Part shown: in pieces, positions 18,694 through 30,317 of the stretch | Layout of the letters: every line of letters begins with the position of its first letter | Position numbering within the stretch: the stretch's first letter is position 1 | Virus record (IMG/VR): IMGVR_UViG_3300023184_000038 | Location: 64,001-128,000 of that record | Reading direction: 5' to 3' (one strand) | DNA length: 64,000 bases | Source: a virus | Made by a program: the position numbers and the translations under genes | Notes under the pieces: model-generated | The model's database searches: none | Told to the model about the DNA's origin: nothing | Seen by the model: only the letters and a program-made list of their open reading frames with translations

Positions 18694-19062
18694 ATGATAA
18701 AGAACATTAATCGTCACGGTAAGTATATGGATGTAATTGGCGTTAATACTAACAATCACATTGTTACCTACGGTGGAGCACAAGGTGTAGGCAATCTAAG
18801 ATTCAATACTAATAATCAAAATATGGAAATATATGACGGTAATAGTTGGGCTGCACTCCATATGGGATATGTTACGGTAGGACTAACTCCTGACGCAGAA
18901 TCATTACTTGATTGGGCTAGAAAAAAGCGTGATGAAGAAATGGAATTAGAAGCACTAGCCGAAACTAATTCTACTATCAAAGACTTGATGGATACTATTA
19001 AGCAAAAGCAAGAACAATTAGAAATAGTTAAAATCTTGATTGAGAAAGAAGTAACAGTTTGA
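18694..19062 (+). CDS. hypothetical phage protein
   Basis: GNLRFNTNNQNMEIYDG motif plus C-terminal coiled coil. Confidence 0.6.
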   Translation: MIKNINRHGKYMDVIGVNTNNHIVTYGGAQGVGNLRFNTNNQNMEIYDGNSWAALHMGYVTVGLTPDAESLLDWARKKRDEEMELEALAETNSTIKDLMDTIKQKQEQLEIVKILIEKEVTV

Positions 19063-20675
19063 AACAAGACAATCTTTCAGCAAAGCATAACCCAGAGTGG
19101 GCATTGTTCTTACCCGCAGTCAGTAGTTTTTACATTGCTGGTTTGGGTAAGCAACGCAAGGGCCAGAATTATTTTGACCAAGCACGAATCCCTGCAAGTT
19201 TTAATGGTGATGTAGAGAAACTAAACTTTCTTAACAGTAAAGAAGGTCTTTACTATTACAAGTGGGGACTATACAGTGCTGGTCACGCTAATTTAGATAC
19301 AACCGTTGATGATCCTAATGAATCTGTCATACGTGAACGTGAAGCAGGTACTTTCATGTTGGGAGATAGTGGTGGATTTCAAATTTTAAAAGGTCAATGG
19401 CCAGCAGATTGGAAAGATCCTAACTGTCCTCGTGCTATGAAAAAACGTAAAGCAGTATTGAAATGGATGGATACATACATGGATTACGGTATGTGTTTAG
19501 ATATCCCAAGTCAATCTGAATTTACTTATCATTTACAAGATAAGAACGGGGTTTCATTGCATGGTATAAAAAAGATTGAGGAAGCTATTACTGCCACTCA
19601 CATTAATAATGAATATTTCATTGCAAATCGTTCGGGCAAATGTAAGTTTTTAAATGTATTACAGGGGCGTGATCATACTGCTAGTGGCACTTGGTATGCT
19701 GAAATGAAAAAGTATTGCGACCCAACTATATATCCAGAAAATCATTTTAATGGATGGGCGTTTGGTGGTCAGGTAAAAATTGACCCGCATTTGATGTTAA
19801 CAAGGATGGTAGATATTATCCATGACGGATTGCTACAAGAAGGTAAACACGATTTGATTCATTGTTTGGGTACAAGTATATTGGAATATGCAGTATTGTT
19901 TACTGATATACAAAAGGCAATTCGTAAATATCACAATCCAAAACTTCAAATTACATTTGATTGTGCAAGCCCATTCTTTGCCGCTGCTAAAGGGTTGGCA
20001 TATTTCAATACTAATATTGAACATAATAAAAAATGGTCCTATAGCATGGAAAAGACAGCAGAGAAAAAGTCTTATGCTAATGATACTCGCAAGTTTAGGG
20101 ACGCTGTATTATCTGAAAACATCCATAAAGTGTTTACAGATAGTCCAGTAACTGATATACTTACACTTAAGGATTTGTGCTATCGTGGTCAGGGGTTTAT
20201 AGGTCAACATGGTAAAGAAACTAAAACAAGTTGGGATACATTGAGTTATACATTGCTTCAAAGTCATAATGTTTGGATGCATATGAATGCAGTTCAAGAA
20301 GCCAATCGTAAATATGAAATAGGTTTAATTCCAAAAATGTTGTCTCATCAGTTTGAGGGTGGTAGATTTTTTACAGAATTGGTTGATGAAATCTTTTCAA
20401 AAAGTACAAAGCAAGAAGCGGTAGATTTAATTGATAAACATGATAGTTATTGGAAACAATTTCAATCAGGTAGTCAGGGCATCAGTGGTAAGAAAACTGA
20501 TAATTCTAGGACTAAGCATAAGCAATTGTATGAGGAAACGGATGATAGTTATTATCAACAATTTCAATCAGGTAGTCAGAGCAGCAGTGGTAAAAAAACT
20601 GATAATTCTAGGTCGATGTATGATGAATTGTTTGAGGAAGTTAGTAACGATATAAATGAAGTAATAGGAAAATAA
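19059..20675 (+). CDS. dpdA: TGT-fold guanine transglycosylase, DpdA-like (7-deazaguanine DNA insertion)
   Basis: LGDSGGFQI TGT signature, LDIP, NVLQG, WAFGG, IHCLG, TFDCAS; clustered with folE/queD/queE. Confidence 0.75.
   Translation: MKQDNLSAKHNPEWALFLPAVSSFYIAGLGKQRKGQNYFDQARIPASFNGDVEKLNFLNSKEGLYYYKWGLYSAGHANLDTTVDDPNESVIREREAGTFMLGDSGGFQILKGQWPADWKDPNCPRAMKKRKAVLKWMDTYMDYGMCLDIPSQSEFTYHLQDKNGVSLHGIKKIEEAITATHINNEYFIANRSGKCKFLNVLQGRDHTASGTWYAEMKKYCDPTIYPENHFNGWAFGGQVKIDPHLMLTRMVDIIHDGLLQEGKHDLIHCLGTSILEYAVLFTDIQKAIRKYHNPKLQITFDCASPFFAAAKGLAYFNTNIEHNKKWSYSMEKTAEKKSYANDTRKFRDAVLSENIHKVFTDSPVTDILTLKDLCYRGQGFIGQHGKETKTSWDTLSYTLLQSHNVWMHMNAVQEANRKYEIGLIPKMLSHQFEGGRFFTELVDEIFSKSTKQEAVDLIDKHDSYWKQFQSGSQGISGKKTDNSRTKHKQLYEETDDSYYQQFQSGSQSSSGKKTDNSRSMYDELFEEVSNDINEVIGK
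20442..20640 (+). repeat. 102-nt in-frame tandem duplication in the DpdA-like C-terminus
   Basis: DSYWKQFQSGSQGISGKKTDNSR / DSYYQQFQSGSQSSSGKKTDNSR. Confidence 0.85.
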
Positions 20676-21568: not shown

Positions 21569-21775
21569 ATGGCAAAACTAACTTTTCAACCTAATCCCCG
21601 CGTTCAACAACTATTTGAGGATCTTGATAAATTTAAAGAATTTTGTGTCAATTTTGGATACAAATATGATGAGTCAGAATTATATGACATGCGTAGTTAT
21701 GCATGTAGACAATTTAATAAATTCATTACCGGTAAGGTTCCTAAAGACCAATGGCAGGAAAACGCTCGTCCATGA
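21569..21775 (+). CDS. hypothetical protein
   Basis: ORF MAKLTFQPNPR... Confidence 0.55.
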   Translation: MAKLTFQPNPRVQQLFEDLDKFKEFCVNFGYKYDESELYDMRSYACRQFNKFITGKVPKDQWQENARP

Positions 21776-22209
21776 AAATAGTGTTGGTCACTGGTGGATT
21801 TGATCCTCTGCACAGTGGTCACATTGAGTACTTTAGGTCTGCCAAGAGTCTAGGTGATCAACTAATTGTGGGTTTGAACAGTGACGAATGGTTGGCTCGT
21901 AAAAAGGGTCAACCTTTTATGCCGCTAAGTGAACGCAGAATTATAGTTGGCAATCTTAAAGACGTTACTGCAACAATCGTGTACAATGATGACAATGGTT
22001 CTAGTTGCAAAGCAATAGAACAATTACTACTACATTGTAGTCCAGATGATGAATTAATTTTTGCAAACGGCGGTGATAGAACTAAAGAAAATATACCCGA
22101 AATGAGTATAACTGATAGTAGAGTAAAATTTATGTTTGGGGTCGGTGGAGAAAACAAGATAAATTCCAGCAGCTGGATTTTACGCCAATGGGACAAATGG
22201 AAGAACTAA
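21772..22209 (+). CDS. cytidylyltransferase family protein (RfaE domain II-like)
   Basis: TGGFDPLHSGH, GLNSD, FANGGDR, SSSWIL. Confidence 0.85.
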   Translation: MKIVLVTGGFDPLHSGHIEYFRSAKSLGDQLIVGLNSDEWLARKKGQPFMPLSERRIIVGNLKDVTATIVYNDDNGSSCKAIEQLLLHCSPDDELIFANGGDRTKENIPEMSITDSRVKFMFGVGGENKINSSSWILRQWDKWKN

Positions 22210-23384
22210 TGAGAAAACTATATTACATGGGGCTTGAGCCCTACAAAGCAAGATACACCCTGCAGTTACAAGACTGGAATGAAACTGTATTCAAGAAAAG
22301 AAAACTTGATTATGTAATTGTGCCCGGCGAAACTCTTAGCAATGATCAAGCAATTGTAACAGGTCAAGTATTAGATGCACATGGTCGTACATACTTTGGT
22401 ATGTCACAACTGATGAATTTAATCAAAATGATGAAGGCTGGAGAATTAACCAATGAAGATGTTATTTACTTTGAGGATATGTTTCAGCCTGGAATCGAAA
22501 GCCTCCCGTATATTCTTAAGCAAATCGGTTCTGCTCACCGGCCTAGGATTTATGTTCGCTGTCTTGCTCAGTCCATTGATCCTGATGATTTTGTTCATGT
22601 ATGGGGTATGCAACATTTCATGGGACATTATGAAAAAATGGTGGACTCGTTTGTAGATGGTGTACTTGCTACTAATGAAGAAATGGTAATGCACATGAAG
22701 ATTGCAGGTTGGAAGGCTCCGATCTACAATATCAGTGGATTAGCATTCGGCAAGGCAGAAGTACAAAGTCGTGTTACTGATATTAAACCATTTGCTGATC
22801 GTAAATACCGTGTAGTATTCTCTGCACGTTGGGATCAAGAGAAGCAGCCCGATTTTTATATGGATTTGATAGAAGCATGGCATGCTCAACCTGGATTGGA
22901 AGAAGTTGAATTTTGTGTATGTAGTGGTAGTTTGTTGAAATCAAATAACGAAAGTTATATGACTCGTACCCGTGAGTTGTTTCTTGCCGGCAAACTTAAA
23001 ATATATGAAAACTTAGAAAAAAATGATTACTATACTATCGTTAATGATAGTCGTGTTGTGTTTAATTGCGCCCTTCAAGATTGGGTTTCCAACACAGTCA
23101 GTGAAGCAGATAGTCTTGGGTGTAATGTTTTATACCCTGCTTATCGGTCTTTCCCTGAAACTTTTTCTAATGACCATACCAGACTTTATGTCCCTTGGAG
23201 TATAGAGGATGCTATGGATAAGTTGGAAGCGTTATTGGACTTCCCTCACCCAAGAATGGGAGAGATCAGTGACTACAATAATGGTACAATTGATCGTATC
23301 ATTGATATTTTAGAAGGTGGTGGACAGAGTATGTTGAGAATGTCCACTGATTATAGAAAACATACCCGCGAATCAAAATATTAA
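22209..23384 (+). CDS. GT-B fold glycosyltransferase
   Basis: VVFSARWDQEKQP and VSNTVSEADSLGCNVLYP...SFPE. Confidence 0.7.
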   Translation: MRKLYYMGLEPYKARYTLQLQDWNETVFKKRKLDYVIVPGETLSNDQAIVTGQVLDAHGRTYFGMSQLMNLIKMMKAGELTNEDVIYFEDMFQPGIESLPYILKQIGSAHRPRIYVRCLAQSIDPDDFVHVWGMQHFMGHYEKMVDSFVDGVLATNEEMVMHMKIAGWKAPIYNISGLAFGKAEVQSRVTDIKPFADRKYRVVFSARWDQEKQPDFYMDLIEAWHAQPGLEEVEFCVCSGSLLKSNNESYMTRTRELFLAGKLKIYENLEKNDYYTIVNDSRVVFNCALQDWVSNTVSEADSLGCNVLYPAYRSFPETFSNDHTRLYVPWSIEDAMDKLEALLDFPHPRMGEISDYNNGTIDRIIDILEGGGQSMLRMSTDYRKHTRESKY

Positions 23385-23394
23385 GGAGAAAATT

Positions 23395-23583
23395 ATGAAC
23401 GCACATACAGATATTAAAACACAATTGGCAGCATACGAAGCCGAACATGAAAAGTTTGAAAAAGGTAATGCAGCAGCTGGAACTCGTGCCCGTAAAGCAT
23501 TGGGTGAACTAGCAAAAGCAGTTAAGGCTCGTCGTAACGAAATCACCGCAGAAAAAACAGCAAGAAAAGAAGCCAAGTCTTAA
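23395..23583 (+). CDS. histone H1-like (Hc1-type) small basic protein
   Basis: KGNAAAGTRARKALGELAK...RRNEI. Confidence 0.7.
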   Translation: MNAHTDIKTQLAAYEAEHEKFEKGNAAAGTRARKALGELAKAVKARRNEITAEKTARKEAKS

Positions 23584-23585
23584 TA

Positions 23586-23801
23586 ATGGCAACTCGTAAA
23601 AAGAAATCAGAAGTAACTATTGATGCGTCCGGTCCGGATGTTGTACAGATAGTTAAAGGTAATCACTTAACAGTTACTACATTTCCAAATGGCAAAACTA
23701 AATTAGTTTGGGATTGGGATGCCCTATTACAAGAAGTCAAAGAGGCTATTGCTAATGTTGAGGGAAAACCAGCAAAAAAGTCAAAGTCAACTGTAAAGTG
23801 A
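23586..23801 (+). CDS. hypothetical protein
   Basis: 71-aa ORF. Confidence 0.55.
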   Translation: MATRKKKSEVTIDASGPDVVQIVKGNHLTVTTFPNGKTKLVWDWDALLQEVKEAIANVEGKPAKKSKSTVK

Positions 23802-23983
23802 AAACACAACAGGAAATTTGGGAATCATTTGCAAAACCCGTTTTCCCTCATCTCAATGAACATCAGTTGGCTGAATTAAAGATTGAGGCTGTAATGGATT
23901 GGGGCTTAGGCATTGACACTGAATTGAGTGTCATGTACGACAAGTACGTAATGATGAAGAATTTAATGGATGCAACGTACTAA
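23798..23983 (+). CDS. hypothetical protein
   Basis: 61-aa ORF, GTGA overlap with the previous gene. Confidence 0.5.
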
Positions 23984-23984
23984 A

Positions 23985-24057
23985 GATAAATAATAATGTA
24001 AGATACACAACGGTATCTTACATTTCAAAAACAAACCATCACAAAGGAAGGTTATCT
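23985..24057 (+). promoter_or_regulatory. GATAAATA promoter plus structured folE leader
   Basis: 12-bp perfect hairpin AATGTAAGATAC/GTATCTTACATT at 23995-24024. Confidence 0.5.
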
Positions 24058-24735
24058 ATGAGTTATAATAAAACAAAAACAGATCCAGAGTTGGGTCAAA
24101 AAGTTCATCAACACTTAGTTAAAATGGGAGTTGAAACTCCTACAAAAAAATCACCGATTTCAGATCGTAAAGACAAGATTGCAGTAATTGAACCATTGTT
24201 TGCTGAAATTATGAAAACATTAGGTCTTGACTTGAGTGACGATAGTTTATGCGATACTCCAAAGCGTGTTGCCCGAATGTATGTCAACGAAATCTTTTGG
24301 GGATTAGACTACGATGCATTCCCAAAATGTACCGCAGTTGATAACAAAATGAAATACAACGAAATGGTTTGCGAACGTAATATCAATGTACAAAGTAATT
24401 GTGAACATCACTTTGTAGTCATCGACGGGCTAGCAACTGTAGCATATGTTCCCAATCAAAAAGTGCTTGGATTGAGTAAAATCAATCGTATAGTAGAATA
24501 CTTTAGCAAGCGTCCACAAATACAAGAACGATTGACTGAACAAGTATTTCATGCATTGCAATATATCCTTGAAACAGAAGATGTTGCGGTTATGATAGAT
24601 GCACAACATTATTGTGTTAAAAGCAGGGGAGTTGAGGATACAGGTAGTTCAACCGTTACAAGTAAACTTGGTGGTGGATTCAAAAGTGACCCGGCTGCTA
24701 GAGCAGAATTTTATCAACTAGCAAGACAGAGATAA
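24058..24735 (+). CDS. folE: GTP cyclohydrolase I
   Basis: [41 protein letters not shown]. Confidence 0.95.
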
Positions 24736-24856
24736 AATTAATGGAAATTTTTATAATTATCGGTATCAGTGCATTGGCATTGATTTTAGTTTTTATGGAT
24801 AAATCATCTGATTGCAATAAAAATTGTTCTCAAGGCAGAAAGTGTGATTGTAAATA

Positions 24857-25093
24857 ATGGGATTTCGTAAACCAATGGACTACACCAATGTTCATCATCA
24901 AATTTATATGGCTGGTGTAGAATTGCATTCTGGTCATAATGACGGATACACTACTTGGGAAATCAAAAAAGATTTACATCGTATCAAATGGTTATTAGAT
25001 GAAATCATGGCTGATTCACCTACTTACGCCGACGAAAAAGAATTCTTAGATGAACATTCTAAAGTAAAGATGTGGAGAACATTAAAAAAATGA
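24857..25093 (+). CDS. hypothetical protein
   Basis: 78-aa ORF. Confidence 0.55.
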   Translation: MGFRKPMDYTNVHHQIYMAGVELHSGHNDGYTTWEIKKDLHRIKWLLDEIMADSPTYADEKEFLDEHSKVKMWRTLKK

Positions 25094-25548
25094 TATTCAA
25101 CAAAATCAAAGAACTAAAAGAGCAAGGGCTTAGAATTGGAATCACTTTTAGCCAGTTTGATTTACTTCACGCTGGACATATTGCTATGCTTAGCCAAGCT
25201 AAAAATCACTGTGACTATCTTATTGCTGGATTACAAAACAATGCACAGTGGGATCGTCCTGAAAAGAATGCACCCATTCAAAGTATTGTTGAAAGACAGA
25301 TTAGTTTAAGTGCAGTGAGATTCGTAGATGAAATTGTAGTTTACAATACAGAAAAAGATTTGGAAGATATTCTACTTACATTACCCATTGATGTACGAAT
25401 TTTAGGTGTAGAATACAAAGATAAAGATTTTACCGGTTATGGAATATGCCAACAGCGTAACATTGAATTAGTGTTCAATGGGCGTGATCACAGTTTTAGT
25501 AGTTCAAGTTTGCGTAAAAGAGTAGTTGAAGCAGCAAAGGATAAATAA
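25090..25548 (+). CDS. TagD-like (glycerol-3-phosphate) cytidylyltransferase
   Basis: FDLLHAGH, CDYLIAGL, RDHSFSSSSLR. Confidence 0.85.
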   Translation: MIFNKIKELKEQGLRIGITFSQFDLLHAGHIAMLSQAKNHCDYLIAGLQNNAQWDRPEKNAPIQSIVERQISLSAVRFVDEIVVYNTEKDLEDILLTLPIDVRILGVEYKDKDFTGYGICQQRNIELVFNGRDHSFSSSSLRKRVVEAAKDK

Positions 25549-25552
25549 TATA

Positions 25553-25617
25553 ACCGGTCTCTTATGGGCTCATCCCGGTATAAAAATTCTGCGTCCTATG
25601 CTATAATAACATAGGAG
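25553..25617 (+). promoter_or_regulatory. candidate preQ1-I-like riboswitch upstream of queD
   Basis: ACCGG-loop-CCGGT stem, ATAAAAA tail, then TCCTATG/CATAGGA hairpin covering the SD. Confidence 0.45.
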
Positions 25618-25623
25618 AACAAC

Positions 25624-26100
25624 ATGGCAAAATATATTTCAACAAAGACCTATAATCAACTAGGTCCGGTTGCATATCGTCAATGGCGTGCAGACAGTCA
25701 TTGTAATTTAATACACGGATATGCATTAAGTTTTCATTTAGAATTTGAATGTGATACACTTGACGCACGTAATTGGTGCATGGACTTTGGTGGTTTAAAA
25801 CCGTTAAAAGGCTTATTAGAAGATTGGTTTGATCACACTCTATTAGTGGCACAAGATGATCCAATGCGTGAACATTTACTAAACTTGGGTAAGTTAAAAC
25901 TAGCAAAGATAACTGAAGTAGAAAAGACTGGATGTGAGGGAATTGCAGCCTTTTTGTACGAATATATTAATACCATCTTTTTACCTAATTACGGTGAGAA
26001 AGACCGAGTATGGTGTAGTAAAGTAGAAGTCAGAGAAACAGATAGTAATATGGCTATGCGAGTGGGTCATAGAGAAGATAATGAATATCTAAATGATTGA
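25624..26100 (+). CDS. queD: 6-carboxy-5,6,7,8-tetrahydropterin synthase
   Basis: HCNLIHGY, MDFGGLK, FDHTLL, GCEGIA, VRET. Confidence 0.9.
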   Translation: MAKYISTKTYNQLGPVAYRQWRADSHCNLIHGYALSFHLEFECDTLDARNWCMDFGGLKPLKGLLEDWFDHTLLVAQDDPMREHLLNLGKLKLAKITEVEKTGCEGIAAFLYEYINTIFLPNYGEKDRVWCSKVEVRETDSNMAMRVGHREDNEYLND

Positions 26101-26770
26101 TATACAGTATATTAATAGCAATGTTGCAATGTCCGATATAGTTGCCGACATTGTTGAATATACTATTAAACATTCTATTGGCCCTTGCAAAATTGCATTT
26201 CCTACAGGTAATACACCCATAGAAATGTATGCCAACTTAGTATTACGTCCAATCAATTGGGAAAACACATATAGTTTTCAATTAGATGAATATGTGGGGC
26301 TACCTAACGGTCATCCCAAGCTGTATACTCAATTTATGTATGAACATTTATATTCTAAAGTAAATATTAATCAATTGCATATATTTTCTCCAATACTTAA
26401 TATTAACTATGATAACATTATTAATACTCACGGTGGATTAGATTTAGCAATATTGGGATTGGGGCACAACGGACATATAGCCTTTAATGAACCGGGTTCG
26501 GAATTTAATTCAGTTACTCGGCAAATTGTGTTGGAAGAATCCACTAGAGTAAACAATAGTAAATGGTTTAAATCGTTAAATGAAGTTCCAACTACTGCAA
26601 TGACAATGGGATTGTCTACTATAATGAGTGCCAGACATATTGTATTAATGGTACAAGGTATTAATAAATTTACAATGCTTAAACAAGCACTATGGGGCAA
26701 AAGAACTGAACATATTCCATGTAGTGTACTTCAAACTCATTCTAATATTAAAGTATTATATTGTGATTAA
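26093..26770 (+). CDS. nagB: glucosamine-6-phosphate deaminase
   Basis: PTGNTP, FQLDEYVGL, LGLGHNGHIAFNEPG, AMTMG. Confidence 0.9.
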   Translation: MIDIQYINSNVAMSDIVADIVEYTIKHSIGPCKIAFPTGNTPIEMYANLVLRPINWENTYSFQLDEYVGLPNGHPKLYTQFMYEHLYSKVNINQLHIFSPILNINYDNIINTHGGLDLAILGLGHNGHIAFNEPGSEFNSVTRQIVLEESTRVNNSKWFKSLNEVPTTAMTMGLSTIMSARHIVLMVQGINKFTMLKQALWGKRTEHIPCSVLQTHSNIKVLYCD

Positions 26771-26786
26771 TTTGGTAATCTTAGTA

Positions 26787-26815
26787 TTGAGTTTCTATTA
26801 AATCTGTGCTATAAT
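26787..26815 (+). promoter_or_regulatory. sigma70-type promoter for queE
   Basis: TTGAGT-17 nt-TATAAT with extended TG. Confidence 0.65.
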
Positions 26816-26851
26816 GTCAAAAAATGTTTATATCATTAAAGGAATAGTACA

Positions 26852-27700
26852 ATGGCAAAATTAAAAGTAGCAGAACTCTTCTATAGTATACAGGGAGAAG
26901 GTAGATATATGGGTGTCCCTTCAGTCTTTCTACGCACATTTGGATGTAACTTCAAATGTGCAGGATTTGGTATGCCTAAGGGTGAACTAAGTCGTGAAGT
27001 AGAAGATATTGCTGCCAATATACATTTATATAATCAGTATACGCAACTTCCATTAGTTAGTACTGGATGCGATAGTTATGCTAGTTGGGATCCAAGATTC
27101 AAAGACTTGAGTCCAGTACTTACTACTGATAGTATTGTTGACAGTATTATGTCTATGCTTCCACACAATCGTTGGATGGAAGAACATCTGGTTATCACAG
27201 GAGGTGAACCTTTACTAGGATGGCAGCGTAGTTATATTGATTTACTTTCACATGACAAGATGAAAGGGTTACAAGAACTAACTTTTGAAACAAATGGTAC
27301 TCAATCTCTACAACAAGAATTGAAAAGTTATTTGCAGCAGTGGGGAATTAATCGTTCTAGAGGTGCAATTACATTTAGTGTTAGTCCTAAACTTAGTATT
27401 AGTGGTGAGAAGTGGGAAGAAGCAATATGTCCTGACATCATTAATGAGTACTCACAAACGGGTCGTACATATTTAAAGTTTGTTGTTGCAACTAAACAAG
27501 ATGTAGAGGAAGCACAAACAGCCGTTAATCAATATCGTACTAATGGATTTAGAGGGCATGTGTATTTGATGCCATGTGGTGGCGTTGAAAGTGTGTATAA
27601 CTTGAATGCAAAAAATGTTGCACTTGAAGCAATGCGTTTAGGCTGGCGTTATAGTGATAGACTTCAAGTCCCACTGTTCAAAAACGAGTGGGGAACTTGA
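26852..27700 (+). CDS. queE: 7-carboxy-7-deazaguanine synthase (radical SAM)
   Basis: ELFYSIQGEG, FLRTFGCNFKC...CDS, ITGGEPLL, FETNGT, SVSPK. Confidence 0.9.
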   Translation: MAKLKVAELFYSIQGEGRYMGVPSVFLRTFGCNFKCAGFGMPKGELSREVEDIAANIHLYNQYTQLPLVSTGCDSYASWDPRFKDLSPVLTTDSIVDSIMSMLPHNRWMEEHLVITGGEPLLGWQRSYIDLLSHDKMKGLQELTFETNGTQSLQQELKSYLQQWGINRSRGAITFSVSPKLSISGEKWEEAICPDIINEYSQTGRTYLKFVVATKQDVEEAQTAVNQYRTNGFRGHVYLMPCGGVESVYNLNAKNVALEAMRLGWRYSDRLQVPLFKNEWGT

Positions 27701-27945
27701 TGCCCTCAATTGATTGGACTACACAATCAGCTAGTGACTATCATTTCAAACAAAGAACTGTGGGTAAACAATTAAAGTTTACTCTAATACCTAGACTATG
27801 CCATATAACAAAGCGTAGAATATGGCTAGAGTATGCATATTGTGTTACTGCAATGTACAGAAGCGGTGATATTAACTTTGATTATGAAAATCGTTGGTAT
27901 AGTAAAGATGAATATTTAATAGCAAGATTAAGGGATTTAATATGA
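27700..27945 (+). CDS. hypothetical protein
   Basis: ORF overlapping the queE stop. Confidence 0.5.
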   Translation: MPSIDWTTQSASDYHFKQRTVGKQLKFTLIPRLCHITKRRIWLEYAYCVTAMYRSGDINFDYENRWYSKDEYLIARLRDLI

Positions 27946-28121
27946 AGTTTGAAATGCGTTGGCTTGTGGTTGAGGCGCCATCTGGCCCTGAAAAGATATT
28001 GCAATATCGTTATGAAAGAGAAATAACAGATTACAGTATAGAAAACCCAAGAACAGGATCCTTTGTTAAAAGAAATGAGTTAACTGATTGGATTACTGTT
28101 ACAACAGTAGATGAGGTATAA
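27942..28121 (+). CDS. small hypothetical protein (not in ORF track)
   Basis: 59-aa ORF MKFEMRWLVV... fills the gap and overlaps the previous stop. Confidence 0.5.
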   Translation: MKFEMRWLVVEAPSGPEKILQYRYEREITDYSIENPRTGSFVKRNELTDWITVTTVDEV

Positions 28122-28122
28122 A

Positions 28123-29484
28123 ATGCGAACATATAATAAACGAATAGCATTTCTAATTAGTGACCAGCATTTTATTACGCATGGTGGGATAGGGCAGTTT
28201 GCTAAAGGTTTTACTGAATTAGGAGACCGCATCAATTGGAAAGTTGACATTATCTTAGACAAAGAACCAACAAACGATTTATCTATACTAGTTAAATCAT
28301 TGGGTGCAAATATCATATATACAGATTCTGGTCTACGCTATTCTGACCATACTGCTACGTTTGCTTTTAAAGATAGTATTAATTTTGAAAAAATGGTTAA
28401 TTTCAGAAAAAGCATTATGCTTGCGTTAGAAACTAATATTTATGATATGATTATTTGTAACACGCAAGAAGCAATGAGTGCAGCATATTCTATGGGGTTA
28501 GGAAAATATATTCCAGTAGTATTTTACACACATTCGTATAGTATGGTTTTTAGAGATGAGCAAGATTTTAGTGATGTTTGTATAGATGAATATCATAACT
28601 TTTTCAATAAGCATATGGAACTATCTCATAGTTTTGTTGGAACTCAAAGTCAAAAGAATGTTGATGAGATGACTAAGTATGGTGCAAAGAATGTATCACT
28701 ATTGCGTATGCCATTAAGTGAACGAGAATTGTTAGTACGCAATGATAATCCGCGCAAAGGTGTATTGTTTATTGGACGATGGGAAGAACGAAAAAATCCA
28801 GAAGCATATATTCGTGTTATGAAAGAATGTAAATTGCCTTGCAGAGTAATGACCAATAAAACAGGTGCTAAAAAATTTGAAAAAGCATTTGCTGATAATA
28901 ACATCACAGATTATGAAATCAAAATAAGTATTATTGGCAAAGAAAAAGTAGATTTTATTAAAAGTTGTAGTGTATTTTTTATGCCAGCATTAGGAGAAAA
29001 CTATCCGTTTGCGTTTAGTGAATGTTTGGGACATATGCCATGTGTTGTGTTAGATAATCAAGATTGGTCTAATAATTTTGACGAAAAATATTTTTATAAA
29101 GAAAAATTAAACAATGTATCAATGTTAATTCAACGATTATACAATACTACAAATTACTACGATACCGGAGCATTAGAATATATTAAATTACTAGATGACG
29201 ATACCGCTATAGGCTGGATAAAATTTTTAGATAAGTTTGTTTCTAAAAAAAGTAATACTAATTCAGCAAAAATAAATTCGACAGAAACAGTATGTTATCA
29301 AGACTATATTAAAGAATTAAACAGAGGGCATTTAGCCCGTGAAGATATTGAAAGTGTATTGGCAAATCGTCATAAATTTATTATCAATGTATATACAGAT
29401 GATAATACGTATTTAAGTAAAGATCCAAAATTTAAGCCAATAGAAGAACAGTCACCTAGTGTGTCATTATTTGAATGGGTATGA
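28123..29484 (+). CDS. GT-B (family 4-like) glycosyltransferase
   Basis: HGGIGQF, LFIGRWEERKNP, MPALGENYPFAFSE. Confidence 0.75.
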   Translation: MRTYNKRIAFLISDQHFITHGGIGQFAKGFTELGDRINWKVDIILDKEPTNDLSILVKSLGANIIYTDSGLRYSDHTATFAFKDSINFEKMVNFRKSIMLALETNIYDMIICNTQEAMSAAYSMGLGKYIPVVFYTHSYSMVFRDEQDFSDVCIDEYHNFFNKHMELSHSFVGTQSQKNVDEMTKYGAKNVSLLRMPLSERELLVRNDNPRKGVLFIGRWEERKNPEAYIRVMKECKLPCRVMTNKTGAKKFEKAFADNNITDYEIKISIIGKEKVDFIKSCSVFFMPALGENYPFAFSECLGHMPCVVLDNQDWSNNFDEKYFYKEKLNNVSMLIQRLYNTTNYYDTGALEYIKLLDDDTAIGWIKFLDKFVSKKSNTNSAKINSTETVCYQDYIKELNRGHLAREDIESVLANRHKFIINVYTDDNTYLSKDPKFKPIEEQSPSVSLFEWV

Positions 29485-30317
29485 TGAAAAAAGTATTAAT
29501 AACAGGTAATTCAGGTTATATCGGTAGTCATCTTTCCAAGATGTTAGCAGATTCTTATGAAGTATATGGGTTAGATATTACCCTTCCACAGACAGATCGG
29601 CTTAAAGATTGGTATAATATTGATATTCGTAAATTATTTACTATTGACCAAGAATTTGATGCAGTAATACATTTAGCAGCCTTAGTTAATGTAGGTGAAA
29701 GTGAGCAGCAACCCATAAGTTATTATATTACCAATTTGAATGGGACGATGAATGTCATCAATAAGATTAAGACAAAGAATTTTATTTTTGCAAGTACTGG
29801 CGCAGCAGCGGGATGTGAGAGTGCATATGGTATTAGTAAACGTGCTGCGGAAGATGTGGTGCGTGAATATTGCACTATACATAATCCCAAAGATTACACA
29901 ATATTTAGGTTCTATAACGTAATTGGTAGTGATGGTTTTTTGCCAACTAATCCAGACGGGTTGATGTATAATTTAATGAAATCAAAAGAAAAGGGCGAAT
30001 TTACTATTTTTGGGAATGACTATGATACCCGAGATGGAACTTGCATACGTGATTATGTACATGTTAATGAGATATGTGAAGCATTAGGTAGTGCTATTGA
30101 GAGGCCAAGTAATCAAATAGAATGTTTAGGGCATGGAGTAGGTTATACTGTTGCCGAGATAGTTAATACGTTCAAAAAAGTAAACAATATACCTAATATT
30201 AATTTACTTACTAAGATAGGTCCAAGAAGAAAGGGTGACTTAGCAGTATCTGTATTAGATAATGTGTCACCCTATATGAAGAATCTTTATACTTTAGAGC
30301 AGTTACTTAAAGTTTAA
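29481..30317 (+). CDS. galE: NAD-dependent epimerase (UDP-glucose 4-epimerase-like)
   Basis: TGNSGYIGSH, HLAA, YGISK (YxxxK), DGTCIRDYVHV. Confidence 0.8.
   Translation: MMKKVLITGNSGYIGSHLSKMLADSYEVYGLDITLPQTDRLKDWYNIDIRKLFTIDQEFDAVIHLAALVNVGESEQQPISYYITNLNGTMNVINKIKTKNFIFASTGAAAGCESAYGISKRAAEDVVREYCTIHNPKDYTIFRFYNVIGSDGFLPTNPDGLMYNLMKSKEKGEFTIFGNDYDTRDGTCIRDYVHVNEICEALGSAIERPSNQIECLGHGVGYTVAEIVNTFKKVNNIPNINLLTKIGPRRKGDLAVSVLDNVSPYMKNLYTLEQLLKV

Follow-up and report, generated by a model that had tools for sequence, protein, structure and literature searches.

A covarying pseudoknot in the leaders of phage queD-like genes is a candidate ligand-ON riboswitch with a preQ1-I-like core

The queD-like gene considered here belongs to an uncultured lake phage known from a 143.7-kb IMG/VR virus record that is rated 41% complete; the stretch that was analysed (the window, 64,000 nucleotides) comprises bases 64001–128000 of that record. 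The gene begins with the ATG at 25624 and is preceded by a leader of 70 bases, upstream of which a cytidylyltransferase-like ORF (25072–25548) ends in the stop codon TAA (25546–25548), and its own stop codon overlaps the start of the next ORF (26093). A T4-like family-B DNA polymerase (phrog_262), FolE, two nucleotidyltransferases, a glycosyltransferase, a NagB-like protein, a QueE-like radical SAM enzyme and an epimerase are encoded in the neighbourhood, with FolE upstream of the queD-like gene and the QueE-like radical SAM gene downstream of it. A 538-aa ORF (19059–20675), for which no Pfam TGT, PHROG or NCBIfam match was found, separates the polymerase region from the deazaguanine genes.

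The product of the gene is a T-fold protein of the PTPS family (Table 1). This protein and its counterparts downstream of related leaders fall far below the NCBI equivalog cutoff for QueD (TIGR03367; 36 bits for the window protein against a cutoff of 89.25), and 'QueD-like' is therefore the accurate name. A PDB sequence search with the protein gave no match. It carries the motif C-N-L-I-H-G-Y, where we take the canonical QueD motif to be CxxxHGH, with a further His at the place where the window protein has AYRQW; judged from these residues, its zinc site may differ from that of canonical QueD.

In a first-pass annotation of the window, the leader had been put forward as a candidate preQ1-I-like riboswitch that follows a promoter and precedes a 7-bp hairpin (TCCTATG/CATAGGA) burying the Shine–Dalgarno sequence of queD. 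All of the sequence elements named in that annotation are present (Table 1), including the promoter-like box, the end of which overlaps the TAA stop of the upstream ORF, and the hairpin, which RNAfold also finds and which does cover the Shine–Dalgarno sequence. When the single leader is folded, both hairpins form (−14 kcal/mol), the loop of the first (P1) consisting of the 17 nt between ACCGG and CCGGT. The z-score of this fold against shuffles is only −0.22, which is no better than chance, and the reality of the element therefore rests on comparative evidence.

Table 1. Features of the queD-like gene and its leader (positions are those of the window; RNA letters are used for elements of the transcript)
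Feature	Position	Strand	Basis or remark
GATAAATA box, T4-late-promoter-like	25540..25547	+	Sequence; promoter function inferred
P1 5' strand, ACCGG	25553..25557	+	Pairs with 25575–25579
L1 start, U-C-U	25558..25560	+	First base variable, C invariant, U near-invariant (126-sequence alignment)
L1 variable linker	25561..25565	+	Alignment
P2 5' strand, GGGC, within the P1 loop	25566..25569	+	Pairs with 25593–25596
L2, UCAUC	25570..25574	+	U, C and A conserved; final C25574 invariant in all 126 sequences
P1 3' strand, CCGGU	25575..25579	+	Alignment, covariation, RNAalifold
L3, AUAAAAAUUCUGC (A-rich tail ATAAAAATTCTGC of the DNA)	25580..25592	+	Invariant alignment columns
P2 3' strand, GUCC	25593..25596	+	Covariation; P2 duplex −5.6 kcal/mol
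Anti-SD arm, UCCUAUG	25594..25600	+	UCC common to the P2 3' strand
SD arm, CAUAGGA	25610..25616	+	Contains part of the Shine–Dalgarno AGGAG
Shine–Dalgarno, AGGAG	25613..25617	+	6 nt ahead of ATG
QueD-like T-fold (PTPS family) protein, 158 aa	25624..26100	+	Pfam PTPS 1e-15

The partner of the P1 loop, described as not obvious in the first-pass annotation, has now been found: GGGC in the loop (25566–25569) is complementary to GTCC (25593–25596), so that the 5-bp P1 and a 4-bp P2, formed by the P1 loop and the sequence following L3, make up an H-type pseudoknot. Such complementarity is found in every lineage, between loop bases situated 5–6 nt ahead of the P1 3' strand and the stretch after a conserved UGC, the GGGC/GUCC of the window having its counterparts in GGAC/GUCC, GGCG/CGCC, GGCAU/AUGCC, GACGC/GUGUC, GACUU/AAGUC, GACAA/UUGUC, AGUGU/GCACU, GGUG/CACC and GAAC/GUUC. 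P1 also varies in the leaders of relatives, where it is found as ACCGG/CCGGU, AGCGG/CCGCU, AGAGG/CCUCU and AGUGG/CCACU.

Covariation was tested after 126 distinct sequences had been aligned with MAFFT, no structure information being supplied. The cells assigned to P1 and P2 are paired in 91.1% of cases (98.9% for P1 and 83.3% for P2) compared with 69.4% after shuffling, and the covariation score is 0.542 compared with 0.162, none of 500 shuffles reaching the former value; shuffle-based measures of this kind can be inflated by kinship among the sequences. When the partners were slid by 1–3 columns the covariation was 0.05–0.12. Changes on both sides are found in seven of the ten pairs, namely all five of P2 and two of P1 (2–34, as GC, CG or UA, and 3–33, as CG, AU or UA), and P1 is predicted independently by RNAalifold. 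A cruder test for perfect helices, in which at least 4 bp were formed by 78% of leaders with their own P2 partner and by 51% with a foreign one, discriminates weakly because a GGC core is common to many P2 helices and bulges occur in some. The pseudoknot is, in our judgement, almost certainly a real and conserved structure.

About 15 of the unpaired bases are invariant: the C and U in L1, UCA and the last C of L2, and A.A.A and U-C-Y-G-C in L3. The 13 nt of L3 thus comprise an A-rich first half, with A invariant at positions 3, 5 and 7, followed by the conserved U-C-Y-G-C. Such a set of invariant unpaired bases is typical of a binding pocket, to which these bases may belong. Two variable columns of L3 (39 and 41) co-vary with the P1 pair 3–33 (MI 0.84 and 0.75), which suggests that L3 docks along P1, and common ancestry could also give the same co-variation. 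In the subgroup to which the window belongs, the L1 linker reads CUUAUGGG (25561–25568 compared with 25595–25600), and a second register can be drawn in which UAUGGG pairs with all of CCUAUG, the anti-SD arm, in 6 bp that include two G-U pairs; alternatively, CUUAUG could pair with CAUAGG. Across lineages, GGGC/GUCC is the sole supported register of P2.

With the QueD-like protein as query, 496 relatives were recovered from viral contigs and 80 of them retained, and a covariance model places one copy of the element directly upstream of the QueD relative in 60 of these 80 contigs (32–63 bits). This model, derived from relatives, has a single match in the window, at 25553–25600 (55.9 bits, E 1.4e-16), the next best match scoring 7.7 bits. 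A degenerate pattern for the conserved half matches at least 120 stretches of viral contigs, nearly all of them true copies, and the collected total from uncultured phage contigs stands at no fewer than 177 instances, with at least 127 distinct aptamers. At two loci (L028 and L029) there is also a partial second match, at 2309–2335, that covers positions 1–26 of the model only (21.3 bits); the full copy follows about 600 nt downstream of it. Among the 119 matches listed for contigs of cellular genomes, L276 and L315 (47 and 57 bits) are the only true copies and the others are chance matches; L276 sits on a 5.5-kb MAG contig and may be mis-binned phage DNA. Among cultured phages, QueD is closest in Acidovorax phage ACP17, Xanthomonas phage BUDD, Dinoroseobacter phage R26L and Sinorhizobium phage Phosso, and the model has no hit in the queD regions of these four. 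When the leader was compared by BLAST with 50,697 phage records, only chance matches appeared, and megablast of the locus gave no match. The element looks confined to phages, and is abundant in lake viromes. A full-text literature search, the scope of which took in few subscription journals, found no description of the motif.

The association with one kind of gene is close. Among the matches listed, 133 of the 138 distinct downstream ORFs fall into a single QueD-like cluster, representatives of which all match Pfam PTPS, the exceptions being a 58-aa ORF ahead of queD, a cupin, a methyltransferase and one protein of no assigned kind. The flanks fetched for 173 motif loci contain FolE in 67 cases and a QueE-like gene in 66, and FolE is present in all five of the large relatives tested. 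Canonical QueC and Pfam TGT were not detected in the phage's own 143.7-kb record (41% complete), and the motif-bearing jumbo genomes of L129 and L137 (98–100% complete) gave marginal PP-loop hits only when searched for QueC; a QueC-like gene is found near the motif at three of the 173 loci (L049, L068 and L166). The part of the pathway common to phages with the motif would be GTP -> H2NTP -> CPH4 -> CDG. Sugar-handling genes (21751–30317 in the window) accompany motif-bearing queD across loci: by tblastn against the 173 loci, the epimerase has a match in 60, the glycosyltransferase in 51 and each of the nucleotidyltransferases in about 45. The NagB-like gene (26093–26770) has a match at just one other motif locus in the same search.

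The idea of a promoter directly ahead of the element has gained support, in that promoter-like boxes recur just upstream of P1 whatever the upstream gene. Among 136 distinct upstream contexts, which differ in their upstream genes, 49 have a TAAATA that ends 3–12 nt ahead of P1 and another 16 have a TATAAT-like box at the same distance, several of them with TTGACA upstream. If these boxes function as promoters, the 5' end of the RNA would fall at or beside P1, and the aptamer would form the 5' end of the mRNA. A further promoter-like sequence is found in the loop of the anti-SD hairpin (25599–25607), which reads TGCTATAAT and corresponds to the extended −10 promoter consensus. Most relatives with this type of platform have GCTAWAAT at the same loop, though a hairpin loop needs no particular sequence, and an internal promoter at this site would yield a short, unregulated transcript lacking the aptamer.

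The aptamer sequences of the preQ1-I riboswitches of Bacillus subtilis and Thermoanaerobacter tengcongensis (PMC10639078) were used for comparison, and the phage element has a core like theirs, with a 5-bp P1 ending in GG and then CA-Y-C-CC..U-AUAAAAA; the invariant C25574, directly before the P1 3' strand, is at the position of C17 in the B. subtilis aptamer. Both preQ1-I and the phage element are small H-type pseudoknots in which the P1 loop and the 3' tail pair to give P2, both have an A-rich L3 opening with AUAAAAA, and both stand before a gene of the queuosine/7-deazaguanine pathway. In the solved structures of preQ1-I, C17 is the base that pairs with the ligand; by analogy, an invariant C beside P1 would argue for a ligand with a guanine-like face, or, when taken with the shared part of the pathway, with a guanine- or pterin-like one. 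The phage element differs from preQ1-I in several respects. In preQ1-I the first base of L1 is a conserved U that contacts the ligand, whereas in the phage element this base (column 6 of the 126 sequences) is U in 57, C in 39 and A in 30. L3 of the phage element has 13 nt and the invariant end UCYGC, compared with about 6–8 nt ending in A, its P2 has 4–7 bp, the P2 3' strand overlaps the strand opposite the Shine–Dalgarno sequence or start codon rather than the Shine–Dalgarno sequence itself, from which ON control is predicted, and the element occurs almost only in uncultured phage contigs. In addition, its L1 (N-C-U plus linker) has 3–11 nt, compared with 2 nt in preQ1-I (PMC10639078).

Of the preQ1-I likeness originally proposed, therefore, the architecture, the link to queD and the conservation among phages have held up, whereas membership has not, since RF00522 and the other Rfam families miss the element. 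In a search of the phage's own record with RF00522, hits were listed down to 8.7 bits and none lay at the motif even at E<=10; the records of five relatives likewise gave no hit at the motif, the gathering score of the family being 39 bits. Scans with all of Rfam agree: no family of Rfam 15 hits the whole window at its gathering score, and no preQ1 family is listed at E<=10 for 25450–25750, the chance hits on these 301 nt being snoRNAs and Mu-gpT-DE, which merely matched the Shine–Dalgarno hairpin.

These results bear on the possibility that the element is a divergent preQ1-I riboswitch, a further 'type' that still binds preQ1 or preQ0 and is too distant from the Rfam seed to score. The core common to the B. 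subtilis aptamer (PMC10639078), the identical H-type topology and the association with a que gene would all be accounted for in this way. However, such a member would have to lack any RF00522 hit at E<=10 in six records, would have U, C or A as the first base of L1 and an L3 that ends in an invariant UCYGC rather than A, and would follow an inverted platform logic. Moreover, canonical QueC was detected neither in the phage's own record nor in the two 98–100% complete genomes of relatives, so that there is mostly no route to preQ0 or preQ1. We consider a divergent preQ1-I member quite unlikely. The element is accordingly not filed here as a member of preQ1-I; to judge by its sequence it works like a small pseudoknot riboswitch, and it may share common ancestry with the preQ1-I class.

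The helix by which the ribosome site is occluded begins with bases of the P2 3' strand, as in the window, where GUCC (25593–25596) overlaps the occluding arm UCCUAUG. In minimum free energy folds, 96% of 142 distinct leaders have two or more of the five bases after UGC paired within the ribosome window (−16 to +6), and 87% have three or more, the corresponding values for shuffled sequences being 52% and 40%; with a shuffled control already at 52%, the discriminating power of this measure is only moderate. Different lineages build the occluder in different ways, and every version overlaps the P2 3' strand. In the window type it is CCUAUG/CAUAGG, over the Shine–Dalgarno sequence; others that cover the Shine–Dalgarno sequence are ACUCC/GGAGU and UGUCU/AGACA, and those that cover the start codon and second codon are UGUCAUC/GAUGGCA, AAGUCAUC/GAUGACUU, UGUCAUUG/CAAUGGCA and UGUCAUA/UAUGACA. 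Helices of the start-codon type show matching changes in the base preceding AUG or in codon 2. In the window, the energy of the hairpin changes from −7.3 to −1.1 kcal/mol when GUCC is blocked, and the energies of hairpin and P2 (Table 1) are balanced; the means over all leaders are −7.6 kcal/mol for the platform and −5.2 kcal/mol for P2.

Because the P2 3' strand begins the occluding helix, knot and occlusion are mutually exclusive, which implies ligand-ON control; the absence of any terminator-like site from the leader places that control at translation. The feedback repression suggested in the first-pass annotation runs counter to this arrangement, in which the ribosome site should become accessible once the aptamer is stabilized. 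Since pseudoknotted structures are not scored by ViennaRNA, the direction is drawn from strand overlap and simple energies; on that basis, if the element is a metabolite-binding riboswitch, it is likely an ON switch. Nearly all known preQ1 riboswitches, and most riboswitches of biosynthetic genes, are OFF switches, and an ON switch is unusual for a biosynthetic gene. A negative-feedback riboswitch, the ligand-bound form of which represses queD, would be in keeping with the existence of a Shine–Dalgarno hairpin and with the preQ1 riboswitches described from T. tengcongensis and B. subtilis (PMC10639078), yet the Shine–Dalgarno sequence and start codon of the phage gene lie outside the aptamer, no terminator follows, and in the 96% of leaders in which the P2 3' strand is also the 5' arm of the occluder, folding of the aptamer removes occlusion. 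We regard OFF control as very improbable.

A similar arrangement is known from the adenine riboswitch of Vibrio vulnificus add, a translational ON switch in which a strand of the aptamer doubles as part of the occluder of the ribosome site and ligand binding frees the Shine–Dalgarno sequence and start codon. The add riboswitch differs from the phage element in being bacterial, in having a known ligand and in its aptamer, a purine-binding three-way junction rather than a pseudoknot. A second parallel is the leader of T4 gene 32 mRNA, where an H-type pseudoknot at the 5' end of an mRNA of a T4-like phage serves translational control by way of cooperative binding of the gp32 protein; that leader, in contrast to the phage element, is not known to have conserved loops resembling a pocket, a competing anti-SD helix or any link to queD.

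The gene 32 leader illustrates how the conserved fold might act in cis independently of any ligand, either as a protein operator, for example for autoregulation by the QueD-like protein or by a phage translational regulator, or as a translational element dependent on folding or temperature. The structure and its overlap with the platform would serve any effector that stabilizes or melts the knot, and the neighbourhood is T4-like, with a family-B DNA polymerase (phrog_262) and TAAATA boxes. The element nevertheless accompanies queD across lineages with differing promoters and neighbouring genes, so that the enzyme itself is the only constant candidate protein, and a 44-nt RNA with some 15 invariant unpaired bases and a core like that of preQ1-I has traits typical of an aptamer for a small molecule. 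A ligand-independent element of this kind therefore seems unlikely to us. Covarying helices, invariant unpaired bases, a putative 5' leader and metabolically coherent genes, the features by which a riboswitch is generally recognized, are found together here, and the element is probably a metabolite-binding riboswitch, the binding of a small molecule being deduced from these features.

Our current working hypothesis, which on balance we consider the best explanation, is that of a two-state pseudoknot switch turned ON by its ligand. The leader of queD would encode a compact aptamer of about 44 nt (25553–25596) consisting of P1, P2 and the 13-nt L3. By default the switch would be OFF, with GUCC outside P2 and engaged in the hairpin UCCUAUG/CAUAGGA, and the Shine–Dalgarno sequence occluded. 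A small molecule would stabilize the pseudoknot, so that P2 holds GUCC, the hairpin collapses and the ribosome site opens, whereupon the QueD-like enzyme, and probably also the product of the overlapping ORF that follows it, would begin to be translated.

It is tempting to speculate on the nature of the ligand. Since QueC is mostly absent and present in only a few of the phages, the likeliest ligands are at or before CDG; from the gene content, the likeliest candidates would be dihydroneopterin triphosphate (the substrate of QueD), CPH4, CDG and 7-deazaguanine, and guanine or folate is possible. An ON switch would suit a substrate, acting in a feed-forward manner, better than an end product, although no ligand that we can name makes ON control of a QueD-like gene obviously logical. 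A more far-reaching proposal, which we put forward tentatively and rate at somewhat short of an even chance, is that the element represents a new phage-specific class of riboswitch that shares only its scaffold with preQ1-I and senses an intermediate or precursor of DNA hypermodification, for example one of the four likeliest candidates given above, turning ON translation of the first committed enzyme.

To our knowledge, riboswitches are rare in phages, and the few that have been reported are copies of bacterial classes. The glutamine riboswitch of phage Melnitz, for instance, belongs to a bacterial class (PMC9004378). The element described here, by comparison, is a covarying pseudoknot specific to queD-like genes that matches no family catalogued in Rfam 15, and it is predicted to control entry into the 7-deazaguanine DNA-modification pathway. 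Were it to bind a metabolite, it would constitute a new ligand–RNA pair on one of the smallest aptamer scaffolds known and an ON-type relative of a class that is known for OFF control, and would provide a direct handle on how phages regulate their anti-restriction DNA chemistry. Should the tentative reading as a new class be true, a virus would be using a metabolite sensor of its own to time or dose the modification of its DNA.
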